Shown here in pieces: positions 34,298 through 48,466 of a stretch of DNA of 64,000 nucleotides. The stretch comes from a candidate division WOR-3 bacterium. Lineage in GTDB: Bacteria; Hydrothermota; 32-111. The stretch is from assembly GCA_039804105.1 (NCBI GenBank), contig JBDRZU010000001.1, forward strand, positions 512,001 through 576,000, read 5' to 3'. Numbering within the stretch: position 1 is the stretch's first letter; the number at the start of each line of letters is the position of its first letter. The position numbers were made by a program, and so were the translations under genes. The notes below the pieces were generated by a model. It was not told the DNA's origin. It ran no database searches and was given only the letters and a program-made list of their open reading frames with translations.

Positions 34298-35638
34298 TTA
34301 TACAACACCCTGATCAATCATAGCATCAGCAACTTTCTTAAATCCTGCAATGTTTGCTCCGTTCACATAGTTTCCAGGCGTTCCATACTCTTTTGCTGCA
34401 TCAACACATGACTGATGTATTTTGACCATTATCTCTCTCAATCTTTTATCTACTTCCTCTCTTGGCCACTGTAATCTCATTGAATTCTGTGACATCTCAA
34501 GACCACTTGTTGCAACTCCACCTGCGTTAGATGCTTTACCTGGTGAATAAAGTATGTTGTTGTTAAGGAATGCTTCCACCGCTTCAGGTGTTGAGGACAT
34601 ATTTGAACCTTCAACAACACATTTGCATCCATTCTTGATCAATGTCTTCGCATCGTTTCCATCGATCTCATTCTGGGTTGCACAAGGAAGTGCAACATCA
34701 ACTTTAACTTCCCATGGTCTTCTGTTTTCAACAAATTTCACTTTGAATTTATCAGCATAATCTTTAACACAATCCCTTCCACTTGCTCTCATCTCAAGCA
34801 TATAATCTATTTTTTCACCTTTTACTCCATCTGGATCATAGATATATCCATCTGGTCCTGAGAGAGTAACAACTTTTGCACCGAGTTCATTTGCCTTTAT
34901 CGCAGCACCCCATGCAACATTACCAAAACCACTGATCGCAACCGTCTTTCCTTCAAGTGAATCCTTTTTCGTCTTCAACATCTCTTCAGCAAAATAGACA
35001 ACACCAAATCCTGTTGCTTCAGGTCTTATCAAAGATCCACCCCAGTTCAAACCTTTACCTGTTAAAACACCTGTAAACTCGTTTTTCAATCTTTTGTACT
35101 GACCAAACATGTATCCAATCTCTCTGGCGCCAACTCCAATATCTCCTGCTGGAACATCTGTATCAGCACCAATGTGTCTATAAAGTTCAGTCATAAATGA
35201 CTGACAGAACCTCATAACTTCACCTTCAGATTTTCCTTTGAGATCAAAATCGCTTCCACCTTTACCACCACCCATTGGAAGTCCAGTTAAGGAGTTTTTA
35301 AAGATCTGTTCAAATCCTAAAAACTTTAAAATTGAAAGTGTTACAGAAGAATGGAATCTTATTCCACCTTTGTAAGGACCAAGTGCTGAGTTGAACTCAA
35401 CCCTGTATCCTCTGTTGATGTGGATCTCTCCCTTATCATCTGTCCATGGAACCCTGAAGAAAATTATTCTTTCTGGTTCAACTATTCTTTCAAGAATTCT
35501 GTACTTTTTGTATTTTGGTTCTTTATCCATAACAAGTGATAAAGATTCTAACACCTCTGTAACCGCCTGAATGAACTCTTTTTCCCAGAAGTATCTCTGT
35601 TTTACTTCTTCTATTACCTGTGCAACATAACTATTCAT
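34298..35638 (-). CDS. gdh: Glutamate dehydrogenase, NAD-type coenzyme signature
   Basis: [37 protein letters not shown]...LSGPDG as in Clostridium symbiosum NAD-GDH. Confidence 0.96.
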
Positions 35639-35678
35639 TTTATCCTCCTGAATATGTTAAATTTGTAAAAACAGCCGT

Positions 35679-35765
35679 ATTTTACACCATTAAAATTAAA
35701 AGTCAAGAGTTCAAAAATTTTAATATTTATTTATTATTGACTTAATAATATGAATTTTTTATAAT
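35679..35765. promoter_or_regulatory. Divergent sigma70-type promoters for the two gdh genes
   Basis: Minus: TTGACT-16-TAAAAT (35706-35679); plus: TTGACT-17-TATAAT (35737-35765). Confidence 0.75.
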
Positions 35766-45431: not shown

Positions 45432-45487
45432 AATTCCTCCTTATTATAAAAATTAAAACATACGGGGAATTTTTGTCAAGAAAAAAT

Positions 45488-48466
45488 TTAATCGGTTTTT
45501 ATTATGGCTCCTTTTCCTCTTTTACCATCAATCAAAACTTTTAAAGGTTTTTCAAATTCAAAATGTAATATTGTATCGTTCAATTTTTTGATATTTTTCT
45601 CTTTAAACAGAAGATCCCAATCGATAAAGGAATCCGATCTTTTATGGCTAAAAATAGTTAGATAGAACACATTCATCGTTACAACATTATGAAAAAAGTG
45701 TGATCCGAGTGAGGGTTCTATAAGCATATCTTTCATCTCGATCTCAACTATAACTTTCACATTTGAAATCGACGACCATAAAACAGGTATCCCTAAAAAT
45801 GGGTCCTTTGTTCCCCATCTACCTGGTCCTACGATTATGTATTTTTTACCTTTTTGTCCAAAATCTCTATTGATCTCTTCGATCAAAGGCACAAGTTCAA
45901 CACTTTTCATCCTATCAAATTTTTCAGGGTTTACAAGGATTATATCATTAATGTTATCTATAAAACCGTTCCCCATCGCATTATCGGAAAAGAAGAGAAT
46001 TTTTTCTCTTGGGATACTTTCAATATCAACTTCAACCTCTGAGTTTTTTCTGATGATGGGTTTTATCTGTAAGATATAAAAAGTCATCTTACGATTTTCA
46101 TCAGGGTTCAAATCAACAGCAAACTCTATTTCACAGGGAGATCCAATAGCGAATTTTATAATCGCACTTACCTGATTCAATATTTTTGAGAGAGGGAAAT
46201 ATTCATATTTGATTATTGAGTTGAAGTTTATCACAAGTGGACCTTTCGCAGAAAGATCATCAGTCAAAGTCCCATTGAAAACATCAAGTACAGATCCAAT
46301 ATAGTTTAAACTTCCATTTTCCCTCGCAACATTTATATCTACAAGTTCAAGGGTTGAATTGTCACCTTCAATAAGATTAAAATTTTTTCTATCACCAAGG
46401 TTTATAGCATAAAAGAATTTTTGTGTTTTGTTGTTTATGTTTATATCGATTTCAGGATATTTGGGACAGAACCTAAAAGAATCGTTTCCATCGATAACAT
46501 ATTTGCCAAGTCCAACAGCAACCTCACATATACCATCCTCTCTTTTAAGATGGGAAATCGGATAATAGTTATCCGACTGCATAACACCTGAAAAAGATGG
46601 ATAATAATATTTCCCGTAATTATGTCCAACAACTTCCTGAATTATGACAGCCATCTTTTCCTCTTCAATCTTGTAATTTATCGCGTTAAAATATGCCCTT
46701 GCTGATGGTGAGAATACAGAAGAGAAAACAAGTTTTATAGCATCCTCAACATCCTTCATCCTCTTCTCAAAGTCGTCATCGTTGTTAGGAAGCATATATG
46801 TTTCAAAAACTCCCGAAAATGATTGGGAGATTGAATCTTCAAACAAACTTGAAGATCTTATCGCTATTGGTCTTGTAAAACTTTTTAGTTTTTTTCTTAA
46901 CTTGTACAAAAGTTCATTTGATAATTTCCCTTTTAAGAATCTCTTTCGCAATTTATTGTAATCGTTTTCCCTTAAAATGTAATAGGACAGATTGTTTTTC
47001 TCTATAAAGTTTGAAAATTCTTCAGAACCTATAAGCATAGTTTTTGGAACAGTTATTTTTACATTTTCAAATGAATTAAAAATATCGGTGTTTTGAAGAA
47101 TATTGTTTACAAAAGCGATTCCTCTTCCCTTTCCCCCAAGAGTTCCATCAGCAATTTGAACTATCACCTGTTCATCTTTTTTTAGATTTTCAGAATATTT
47201 TACAACTTTTCCCTTTATCGATTCCTTATCAATATCAAGTGTTATATCTATAAGATATTTTCTCAACTCCTCTATCGATTTAAAATCTGAAACTTTCAAT
47301 TTCTGTAATTTTTTTGCTATTTTGATCTCACCTCTTGCCATAAGCCATGCTGAGAACTGGTTTAAATTCGCATGGAAAACTAAAGATTCCGATGGAATTG
47401 TTAAAAGAATTTTTCTGAAAGTTTCAATGTTGCTCGCTTTGACTATTTCCTGACCTTTTCTATCCTTAAAAACGAATGAACCAAAGCCAAGGTTGTTGAA
47501 AATAAAATTTCTTAACTCTTGACTCAATTTATCACTGTTTTTGTTTATGAATGGGACTTTCAACTCTTTCGCTTTTTTTAAATTTTCCTTTTCAAAAGAT
47601 TGTAAAAGACATGGTAGTTCAGGCATCGATTCCTTTACAAACTTAATAAGTTCATAACCTGCATTATAGTTTGTTGCATTGTTTTTTGGAAATTTCATAT
47701 CTGAGATCACAGTTAAAAGATTCTCTCTATACTTTTCAAAATAAAAAATTGCATCCTCATAATTCGTTGCAATTATTACTTTTGGTCTTGCTCTCAAACG
47801 GAGTAGTTTTTTCATATCATCAAGTTTTTCCTGTATTATCAAACGCTGCGTCTGTTTTAGAATCTCAGTGTAAAGTATTGGAAGGTACCTCGATATATAC
47901 CTTATAGAATCTTCAACAAGGAGTATAACTCTCACATTTCCTATCAGAGTGTCCCTTTCGATGTTCTTTTTGTCCTCAACATATTTTATCATAGCAAGAA
48001 AAACTTTTGAATCACCGTTCCATACAAAAACAAGGTCCTTATCCTTATCTTTTTCGAGTTGATCTTTAATCAGTGGTATCTCTCCGTTGTCATTTAACAG
48101 TATAACTATCGGTATATCTTTGTTAATACTTCTTATCTTTTCTTTTAACTGGTAGGGAGACATTCCATCAATCCTCATTGTCAAAATTACCATATCAAAA
48201 TGTTCTTTTTTTAACCATTCACATGCCTCTTCACCATTTATAGCATTTGTGACTCTCGGAGCATCGGGTAAGGAAAGTTTATGATACTCTCCAAAAATTC
48301 TTTCAGCTAACCTTCCCTCCTCTTCAAGGATGAAACCATCGTAAAATGTCGCAACGAGTAAAATCTCTTTGACTTTGAAAGTTGAAAGATCATGGAAAAT
48401 TTCAATGTTGTTTTTGTAGGATGTATAAGATTGAACAAACTTTTCAACTATCTGTTCCCTGTCCAT
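45488..48466 (-). CDS. Tandem receiver-like domains fused to a PEP synthase/PPDK-type ATP-grasp domain and a putative His domain
   Basis: ILLVEDS..ISDMKFP receiver; LGGKGRG, RSSSLFEDS..SFSG.FET, MAVIIQ, EIEFA, YILQIKP; C-terminal SLGSHFF. Confidence 0.85.
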   Translation of the reverse strand: MDREQIVEKFVQSYTSYKNNIEIFHDLSTFKVKEILLVATFYDGFILEEEGRLAERIFGEYHKLSLPDAPRVTNAINGEEACEWLKKEHFDMVILTMRIDGMSPYQLKEKIRSINKDIPIVILLNDNGEIPLIKDQLEKDKDKDLVFVWNGDSKVFLAMIKYVEDKKNIERDTLIGNVRVILLVEDSIRYISRYLPILYTEILKQTQRLIIQEKLDDMKKLLRLRARPKVIIATNYEDAIFYFEKYRENLLTVISDMKFPKNNATNYNAGYELIKFVKESMPELPCLLQSFEKENLKKAKELKVPFINKNSDKLSQELRNFIFNNLGFGSFVFKDRKGQEIVKASNIETFRKILLTIPSESLVFHANLNQFSAWLMARGEIKIAKKLQKLKVSDFKSIEELRKYLIDITLDIDKESIKGKVVKYSENLKKDEQVIVQIADGTLGGKGRGIAFVNNILQNTDIFNSFENVKITVPKTMLIGSEEFSNFIEKNNLSYYILRENDYNKLRKRFLKGKLSNELLYKLRKKLKSFTRPIAIRSSSLFEDSISQSFSGVFETYMLPNNDDDFEKRMKDVEDAIKLVFSSVFSPSARAYFNAINYKIEEEKMAVIIQEVVGHNYGKYYYPSFSGVMQSDNYYPISHLKREDGICEVAVGLGKYVIDGNDSFRFCPKYPEIDININNKTQKFFYAINLGDRKNFNLIEGDNSTLELVDINVARENGSLNYIGSVLDVFNGTLTDDLSAKGPLVINFNSIIKYEYFPLSKILNQVSAIIKFAIGSPCEIEFAVDLNPDENRKMTFYILQIKPIIRKNSEVEVDIESIPREKILFFSDNAMGNGFIDNINDIILVNPEKFDRMKSVELVPLIEEINRDFGQKGKKYIIVGPGRWGTKDPFLGIPVLWSSISNVKVIVEIEMKDMLIEPSLGSHFFHNVVTMNVFYLTIFSHKRSDSFIDWDLLFKEKNIKKLNDTILHFEFEKPLKVLIDGKRGKGAIIKTD

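Follow-up and report, generated by a model that had tools for sequence, protein, structure and literature searches.

What becomes of a glutamate dehydrogenase (GDH) whose catalytic motifs are gone and whose gene is kept? The question is posed by ten contiguous open reading frames (ORFs) at 34298-48466 of a 64,000-nt stretch of DNA (the window) from a candidate division WOR-3 bacterium. Two intact GDH genes, gdh1 and gdh2, stand there beside two pseudo-GDH genes, psA and psB, which follow a sigma54 promoter together with the gene for a 105-aa protein with invariant cysteines (the Cys protein); a histidine kinase and its activator, the transhydrogenase NfnAB and a dikinase-like protein complete the block. 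The ORF map and family matches confirm the identities that an initial annotation of the sequence had assigned to these genes.

Two pseudo-GDHs without catalytic motifs are under purifying selection

Catalysis and ligand binding by GDHs involve a substrate lysine, a catalytic lysine, the PAxD motif and a nucleotide-binding loop. Gdh1 and Gdh2 carry the full set of an active Glu/Leu/Phe/Val dehydrogenase (GPxKGG, the substrate lysine, GGxKGG, PAxD, GxGxxG/A and EGxN). PsA and PsB both lack GPxK, the catalytic GGxKGG and PAxD: at these places PsA reads ETDVTS, FGGSTLG and YLKINDY, and PsB NDTFSN, VNGSFSS and FFSSDLN. PsA is also devoid of the nucleotide-binding loop; PsB retains GFG and EG.

PsB matches both GDH Pfam domains and PsA neither. 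The link from PsA to the family runs through the copy in G008, a genome of the sister genus: PsA matches that copy at 26% identity (E 1e-38), and an intact small GDH matches it at E 6e-29. A structural model of PsA (predicted local distance difference test score 84) gave template modelling (TM) scores of 0.68-0.80 to the GDH structures listed, although 13 of the 23 rows in its alignment were intact GDHs, which biases the model toward this fold. From the Pfam matches of PsB, and from the model and the G008 chain for PsA, both proteins are predicted to retain the two-domain GDH fold. Residues of the YFEWLQNKR helix are among those conserved in PsA (Y346, E348, K353, R354, E356), whose close homologues, at 90-91% identity, are labelled WOR-3.

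On the small GDHs of the tandem pairs described below, the psA profile scored 51-86 bits and the psB profile 96-198 bits, as against 8.7 and -0.5 bits (psA) and 59 and 41 bits (psB) on gdh1 and gdh2, respectively. By these profiles, psA and psB descend from the small GDH of a widespread sigma54 module (module A, below), not from gdh1 or gdh2. The same scores (51-198 bits on small GDHs, -0.5 to 59 on gdh1/gdh2) reject a duplication of gdh1 or gdh2 as the source of the pair and speak against the earlier proposal that the dead proteins are subunits of the neighbouring GDH type.

Selection was gauged from the ratio of nonsynonymous to synonymous substitution rates (dN/dS; Nei-Gojobori) in two independent close pairs, with dS of 0.27-0.63 (0.43-0.63 for psA/psB). 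The ratios were 0.080 and 0.127 for psA, 0.152 and 0.084 for psB and 0.056 and 0.090 for the Cys gene; an unrelated neighbouring gene gave values similar to those of psA/psB (0.099 and 0.127). Kinase, activator, nfnA, nfnB and the dikinase-like gene lay at 0.015-0.051, and gdh1 and gdh2 at 0.004 and 0.015 in one pair. Against G004, the most distant member of the genus, values were 0.22-0.29 with dS saturated. The psA and psB frames stay open down to 44-46% identity, no stops occur within the psB matches, and across nine sequences from the genus psA varies in length only from 404 to 415 aa. Both genes are under purifying selection; the neutral decay that the initial annotation had named as fatal to its proposal does not agree with a dN/dS of 0.08-0.15. 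In one RNA run from the same study, only 13 short, partial pieces matched, 12 of them at <90% identity, too little to speak for or against expression.

A sigma54 two-component switch precedes the dead pair

The cys-psA-psB genes (6-nt gap, 4-nt overlap) lie behind an exact sigma54 motif, TGGCAT-N5-TTGCT at 40033-40018 on the minus strand, 31 nt before the Cys start. It is the sole zero-mismatch match among four in the window and is conserved in nine aligned loci; rpoN is present in the genome, and 40 of 69 related intergenic stretches carry the motif, against 0.11 expected by shuffling. With GPxK, GGxKGG and PAxD lost in PsA and PsB, this motif upholds the annotated sigma54 promoter driving three non-enzymatic proteins.

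Kinase and activator hold the parts of a two-component system built on a sigma54 bacterial enhancer-binding protein: kinase H-box, receiver aspartate, Walker A and B motifs and a helix-turn-helix (HTH), alongside the -24/-12 site and rpoN. The activator loop, GSFTGA, is a one-residue variant of GAFTGA. A cytoplasmic location, in keeping with the cytoplasmic signal first proposed, is borne out by the lack of any hydrophobic 19-mer above 1.18 and by the GAF domains of the kinase. The ERxKELxC domain of the kinase occurs in all 60 aligned homologues; many Planctomycetota-labelled homologues and some others are ~380 aa long and lack the first GAF region.

The matrix used to score putative activator sites was derived from 70 loci of other genera; its seed pattern was informed by the window repeat, so that it is partly circular. 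By this matrix the tandem sites at the Cys promoter rank first of 11 pairs in the genome (score 29.1). Of 12 sigma54-like sites genome-wide, only that of cys-psA-psB has a same-strand upstream match; one other has a single reverse match.

The nfnA-nfnB-kinase-activator row is as tightly coupled as annotated (3-nt gap between nfnA and nfnB; overlaps of 10 nt at nfnB/kinase and 4 nt at kinase/activator). It is preceded by a TTGACA element conserved in six of six aligned loci of the genus. Since the 56-nt gap to the dikinase-like gene contains this promoter-like element, that gene is probably not co-transcribed with nfnA. An activator-like site behind the -35 scores 12.9, a value reached by 106 of 3.6 million genome positions (12.9, 11.7, 11.7, 7.6 and 3.3 in five genomes). 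Control by the activator of its own operon and of nfnAB through this site is a lead only: the nfnA promoter of G011 has a stronger site (17.7, reverse) between -35 and -10 (L133:6125-6150), and neither cognate kinase nor activator was found in that genome, so the site may belong to another regulator. The gdh1/gdh2 intergenic region contains neither a sigma54 site nor an activator-site match (best matrix score 0.5), and sigma54 or activator control of the gdh promoters was rejected.

The switch sits over glutamate enzymes in many anaerobes

The Cys protein has no meaningful Pfam or NCBIfam match, and its Atlas clusters are hypothetical proteins. Its family comprises 1961 representatives at E ≤ 1e-3; eight cysteines, invariant among 146 sequences, suggest metal binding. 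The structural model was too weak (predicted TM score 0.32) to assign the protein to a Zn-finger or Fe-S family by fold, with one match at Z 2.3 among 48,161 chains. Among 250 sampled genomes of the phylum, 60 gave Cys matches, a few of them weak and with internal stops.

Of 395 confirmed stretches in the genome collection, 80 loci, two of them from the window's genus, were used for counting. Their labels cover about a dozen groups (Planctomycetota, Desulfobacterota, Spirochaetota, Ignavibacteria, Zixibacteria, Verrucomicrobiota, KSB1, Calditrichaeota and others). The cognate activator is present in 71/80 and the kinase in 65/80; in five of the nine loci without the activator, the contig ends less than 1.4 kb from the Cys gene. 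Small GDHs occur in 29 loci, a NuoE-like gene in 55 and a Glu_synthase-like gene in 42, and 77 of the 80 hold either a small GDH or an operon with NuoE, NuoF, Fe-S and Glu_synthase domains. Other parts of the window's block are scarce there: nfnA in 4/80, large GDH in 5/80 and a PPDK_N protein in 5/80, three of these only 23-29% identical. Kinase, activator, sigma54 promoter and Cys protein over a glutamate/2-oxoglutarate enzyme, module A, form a unit shared by many anaerobes.

The commonest output of the switch comprises a NuoE-like protein with a C-terminal Zn-ribbon-like part, a NuoF-like protein often fused to a GltD-like domain, a 2Fe-2S/4Fe-4S subunit and a ~527-aa Glu_synthase protein (for example L043:10257-16800, L054:10413-15460 and L131:6046-12561). 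The last, found in 42/80 loci, has the Glu_synthase FMN domain only, is 77-88% identical to the L030 copy across phyla and is matched by no NCBIfam model. The operon may encode an ammonia-using, possibly electron-bifurcating glutamate synthase/dehydrogenase. The main text of PMC9304861 does not contain the word 'glutamate'; its supplementary Bfu table may list this operon.

An intact small GDH is encoded in one ORF with a single Cys repeat and a leader rich in Lys/Arg in three WOR-3 loci (L030:7336-9111, L033:9656-11188, L036:2282-3838), and Lys/Arg-rich N-terminal tails also occur on many free Cys proteins and module GDHs. Four loci hold two Cys genes (L078, L097, L098, L100), in tandem in L098; in the other three, one precedes each enzyme operon (GDH, NuoE-like or nfnA).

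Stages between enzyme and dead pair survive

Most module A GDHs are single and intact, those of other WOR-3 bacteria among them. Tandem pairs occur in nine genomes of several phyla (G005, G007, G009, G010, L045, L072, L087, L096 and L115), a count that leaves out five loci, two of the window's genus and three duplicates. In all nine it is the upstream copy that is intact; Ala, Met or Ser replaces the catalytic lysine in the downstream one. Both copies are dead in G008, where they are less diverged, and in the five genomes of the genus, where they are strongly diverged. Motifs and order together trace a series from one active copy through an active plus a dead copy to two dead ones. The GDH tree behind it is a quick version in which long branches meet. 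By position, psA would be the former catalytic copy.

The six double-dead genomes, G000-G004 and G008, of which five are 95-100% complete, yielded no intact small GDH, so that the ancestral-type catalytic partner is missing. In these genomes gdh2 is adjacent to the dead pair in six of six and gdh1 in five (the contig of G002 ends inside gdh2). Large GDHs are present in 11 of the 12 other genomes of the family, one per genome where the small GDH is intact and two each in G001, G003, G004 and G008.

The ten-gene block joins three modules within one genus

The initial annotation treated the ten genes as one system and looked to co-conservation of the neighbourhood. This stood within the genus and, with one swap, in one genome of the sister genus, and it failed beyond. 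All five genomes of the genus keep the block (whole in G001 and G003, up to the contig end inside gdh2 in G002, over two contigs in G004). G008 has the same order across a contig break, with a three-gene Nfn-Bfu/Stn-type enzyme (L121:12895-18566; matches to 9bov, 8oh5 and 9n5u) in place of nfnAB. Conservation of all ten genes outside this group was rejected: elsewhere they split into three separate modules, A, B and C, joined intact only within the genus.

Module B pairs large GDHs with the dikinase-like protein, which is present in 17/250 genomes of the phylum. At E ≤ 0.1 this protein matches only PPDK_N, receiver and DUF5752 domains; neither the phosphoenolpyruvate (PEP)/pyruvate barrel nor the Pfam phospho-His swivel of a pyruvate, phosphate dikinase (PPDK) or PEP synthase was found. 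Its first receiver lacks the phospho-Asp (VILT) and its second keeps it (VISD), the receiver consensus presumably applying here, and an invariant His lies in a C-terminal GSHFFHN motif. In the stretches examined from G005, G006, G007 and G009 (two of them short contigs), no GDH was seen beside the gene. Among 79 metagenome loci, a GDH lies within 6 kb in 24 (19 of the 49 with at least 6 kb total flank), and nfnA and Cys occur once each, in the locus from the window's genus. Nfn-Bfu/Stn-like genes adjoin the dikinase-like gene in three of the 79 (L161, L176, L210).

Module C, the transhydrogenase, is assigned from adjacent genes for a small (PRK06222) and a large (TIGR01316-type) subunit. NfnAB couples NADPH, NAD and ferredoxin, and we take the window's enzyme to bifurcate electrons as its family does. 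nfnA is present in 10/13 genomes of the family, beside module A in G009 and beside a large GDH in G011 and G012. G141, of another family, has the order nfnA-nfnB-kinase-activator-cys-NuoEF operon-gdh2-small GDH, and in L100 a Cys gene directly precedes nfnA. The link of the transhydrogenase to the other modules is recurrent and loose. The large subunit in G009 is extended to 599 aa (L026:10420-13942), and upstream of this NfnAB lies a gene for a 291-aa multi-Zn-ribbon protein related to the C-terminal part of NuoE-like proteins.

What the dead pair may do

The two live GDHs probably differ in coenzyme. Gdh1 shares the nucleotide-domain motifs GFGNVAWG and TLSGPDG with 1bgv, 1k89 and 1aup, the last titled NAD-specific; Gdh2 is closest to 5gud and 5ijz, the latter titled NADP-specific. 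This suggests NAD for Gdh1 and NADP for Gdh2. The large subunit of glutamate synthase was not found in the window's genome (85% complete), which gave two weak partial PF01645 matches only. In an amino-acid fermenter, the diet assumed here, that possesses NfnAB as well as GDHs for both NAD and NADP, cycling between the two GDHs has to be prevented and NADPH apportioned.

A conserved signalling pair has three non-catalytic proteins as its one evident target, so these proteins should act outside the loop, and both their descent and the genes around them implicate glutamate redox enzymes. We favour, at a little under an even chance, an inducible pseudoenzyme complex of PsA, PsB and the Cys protein that regulates a neighbouring GDH or NfnAB. 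Gdh1 (NAD type) and Gdh2 (NADP type) would have taken over catalysis from the small GDH; when the kinase signals, PsA, PsB and the Cys protein would be made and form a complex that retains the old GDH fold; PsB would sense NAD(P)(H) through its residual nucleotide loop; and the complex would bind Gdh1/Gdh2 or NfnAB from outside and damp one route. The NAD and NADP enzymes would so be kept from cycling against each other, and the share of glutamate-derived NADPH going to NfnAB would be set. The full form of this proposal is tentative and, taken whole, doubtful: a hitherto undescribed sigma54 system (GAF kinase, activator, two-repeat Cys protein) for the glutamate redox enzymes of many uncultured anaerobes, whose output in this lineage has become wholly non-catalytic, an oligomer of two dead GDHs sensing NAD(P)(H) and braking the other GDH subfamily or NfnAB in trans, so as to route electrons among NADH, NADPH and ferredoxin.

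Several observations weigh against the regulatory complex. The PsB loop is only partial (YGFGEKP), and PsA is without every ligand motif. Outside the genus, nfnA lies within 10 kb of module A in 2/78 loci and a large GDH in 4/78; in family f2 the dikinase-like gene stands beside large GDHs (G013, G014, G016) and the Cys module is in 0/5 genomes. The double-dead genomes probably reflect one evolutionary event, so the linkage of the dead pair to gdh1/gdh2 is not independent evidence. Large GDHs occur in all four genomes of the family with an intact small GDH, so their presence alone did not kill the latter. Profile scores of psA and psB against the upstream and downstream ancestral copies are about equal, on branches too long to resolve. 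A predicted PsA + PsB + Cys complex, whose score was not specific against a control with PsA replaced, counts neither for nor against binding.

Instead of acting on an enzyme, PsA, PsB and the Cys protein might feed back as co-sensors on the kinase or activator, the real output being activator control of the nfnA-nfnB-kinase-activator promoter. The Cys gene does track the activator (71/80) more than any one enzyme (GDH 29, NuoE-like 55), the nfnA promoter has its activator-like site in five genomes, and a GDH of B. subtilis inhibits the regulator GltC according to PMC6794564. We nonetheless regard this as unlikely: 51 of the 80 loci have no small GDH in the flanks examined, so that a GDH is no required co-sensor; G011 has the stronger site, but its cognate kinase and activator were not found; and the second Cys copies, with no sigma54 motif found before them in four of four loci, stand before enzyme operons as fits an enzyme accessory.

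A job unrelated to the neighbours, such as scaffold or chaperone for the Cys protein or service to some other partner, would make the neighbourhood ordinary metabolic clustering. Modules A, B and C are apart in most genomes, an NADP-GDH next to NfnAB, as in G011 and G012, is metabolically sensible even with no regulation, and the block is set in the genus among hsp20, sugar-nucleotide genes and glcD. Such a job has a low probability in our judgement, because the order dikinase-like-transhydrogenase-kinase-activator-cys-psA-psB-gdh2-gdh1 outlived a transhydrogenase swap between two genera and in 77/80 loci the switch has glutamate enzymes as its ancestral output.

It is improbable that PsA and PsB enter Gdh1 or Gdh2 hexamers as regulatory subunits, as Thermus GdhA does with GdhB. 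The PsA model keeps the fold, its YFEWLQNKR-helix residues are still conserved and no same-type catalytic partner is left; yet the subfamilies differ, with intact small GDHs ~30-35% identical to gdh1/gdh2 and psA/psB profiles at -0.5 to 59 bits, and the dead pair has its own promoter rather than those of the gdh genes. Slow decay under relaxed selection after a gdh1/gdh2 takeover, to which the very long branches, a dN/dS 3- to 10-fold above most core enzymes (0.22-0.29 to the most distant member of the genus, at saturated dS) and the absence of any match to the module in G011 and G012 of G008's genus would lend themselves, is very hard to credit with dN/dS far below 1 in both close pairs, similar to that of an unrelated neighbour, no stops in psB matches and a constant psA length.

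Layout of the locus

From the right, the minus strand reads dikinase-like gene (992 aa), nfnA, nfnB, kinase, activator, cys (105 aa), psA and psB (Table 1). The annotated convergence on the gdh pair needs correcting: gdh1 (minus) and gdh2 (plus) are divergent, back to back, and psB converges on gdh2 alone, with the terminator-like hairpin at 37172-37196 between them. In the genus the block borders on unrelated genes (hsp20, sugar-nucleotide genes, glcD).

Table 1 Features of the ten-gene block, in window coordinates.
Feature	Position	Strand	Basis
Terminator-like hairpin of gdh1	34246-34273		
gdh1, large-type GDH, catalytic motifs intact, predicted NAD-specific	34298..35638	-	PRK09414 751 bits; best PDB 1bgv/1k89/1aup
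gdh1/gdh2 intergenic region, back-to-back sigma70-like promoters	35639..35796	.	+35737-35765 (11/12), -35706-35679 (10/12)
gdh2, large-type GDH, catalytic motifs intact, predicted NADP-specific	35797..37143	+	PRK09414 772 bits; best PDB 5gud/5ijz
Terminator-like hairpin of gdh2	37172-37196		
psB, pseudo-GDH, small (Thermotoga/Thermus) type	37222..38436	-	PF02812 + PF00208 above cut-off
psA, pseudo-GDH, small type, fold predicted to be kept	38433..39662	-	no GDH Pfam match; chain via G008 copy; model
Cys protein, 105 aa, unnamed family	39669..39986	-	two repeats GLCxxC-x5-C-x11/12-C-EE[FY]
sigma54 -24/-12 promoter of cys-psA-psB	40018..40033	-	exact motif match
Tandem putative activator-binding sites, 18-nt spacing, ~75-110 nt upstream of -24	40107..40142	-	direct repeat + matrix
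sigma54 activator: receiver, AAA+, Fis-type HTH	40139..41494	-	domain matches; dN/dS 0.015-0.043
Cytoplasmic histidine kinase, GAF-like sensor region, ERxKELxC (Cys226)	41491..43209	-	domain matches
nfnB, NfnAB large subunit, GltD-like	43200..44600	-	TIGR01316 613 bits (cut-off 472)
nfnA, NfnAB small subunit	44604..45431	-	PRK06222 419 bits (cut-off 220)
Probable sigma70 promoter of nfnA-nfnB-kinase-activator	45432..45487	-	TTGACA 45479-45474; activator-like site directly behind -35
Receiver-gated dikinase-like protein	45488..48466	-	receivers, PPDK_N, GSHFFHN motif

Elsewhere in the window, 5 kb off the block, a 1275-aa adenylate/guanylate cyclase-TPR protein is encoded at 53285-57112; proteins of similar size with an N-terminal cyclase-like motif directly adjoin a large GDH in G009, G005 and G007 (L127:1519-5646, L128:623-4714). 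A Por secretion C-terminal sorting domain occurs in three proteins encoded at 11766-15550 and 62843-63916, and a 1112-aa LVIVD-repeat protein lies at 15561-18899.

Discussion

In Thermus thermophilus, catalytic GdhB is paired with the inactive paralog GdhA as a regulatory subunit (PMC9570180 and bioRxiv 2025.10.31.685773). The initial annotation drew on this pair, and the analogy holds for the ancestral tandem pairs, nine of nine being active plus dead; like the GdhA/GdhB heterohexamer (PDB 3AOE) with APRTh, which leucine and AMP activate, they combine a small-type GDH with an inactive paralog. It does not hold for the window: neither copy is intact there, the genome yielded no catalytic subunit of the same type, and the pair comes with a sigma54 system and the Cys protein. 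Since chain 3aoe_E is not the nearest match of the dead tandem-pair copies, descent from GdhA is left unsupported. The model for the proposed PsB is Thermus ADLP, an alanine-dehydrogenase pseudoenzyme that binds NAD(H) and regulates a CoA transferase (bioRxiv 2025.10.31.685773): a dead dehydrogenase that keeps its NAD(H) binding and controls a different enzyme. ADLP belongs to another fold family, and for PsB both the nucleotide binding and the target are put forward by analogy.

The switch resembles NtrB/NtrC and AtoS/AtoC in its HisKA/HATPase kinase, receiver-AAA+-HTH activator, tandem upstream sites and -24/-12 promoter, yet falls below the respective cut-offs (TIGR01818 ntrC 414 vs 559, PRK11073 NtrB 119 vs 240, AtoC 406 vs 714), has a GAF-type sensor with an invariant Cys and places an unnamed Cys protein at the head of its target operon. 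B. subtilis RocG and GudB act on GltC (PMC6794564), and PDB 7MFM is by title a GudB-GltAB counter-enzyme structure. By analogy, a GDH scaffold would act through protein contacts on glutamate metabolism in the window as well; the B. subtilis GDHs are active, their regulator is LysR-type and there is no dedicated dead pair. Thermococcaceae carry either NfnAB or the Nfn-Bfu/Stn type (PMC9304861), and both NfnAB and the G008 enzyme are ordinary, only their place in the block being notable. VadK is described in PMC13400623 as a barrel-less PPDK relative that autophosphorylates and binds metabolic enzymes. Like VadK, compared here by description only, and like rifampin phosphotransferase, the dikinase-like protein has a PPDK_N ATP-grasp without the pyruvate barrel; unlike VadK it adds two receiver domains and travels with GDH.

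A literature search, with subscription journals mostly outside its coverage, returned no description of the Cys family, of its regulon or of a GDH pair with both members dead. Neither sigma54 systems nor dead GDH subunits are new in kind; the novelty lies in a pair that is doubly dead yet held by selection, in the surviving intermediate stages and in the exchange of transhydrogenases. As a ten-gene unit, the block is confined to one lineage. The unannotated Cys family marks a glutamate-metabolism regulon in uncultured anaerobes, with a NuoEF-coupled glutamate-synthase-like enzyme as its commonest output. As a rule, a pseudoenzyme regulator is met as the end point of its evolution; in this case the stages survive in living genomes as a single active GDH, an active plus a dead one, the less-diverged double-dead pair of G008 and the fully diverged pair, so that the way in which a central metabolic enzyme gives rise to a regulator becomes testable step by step in E. 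coli. If the proposed role is true, these genomes would hold a natural series from an enzyme through an enzyme with a dead subunit to a pure regulator.

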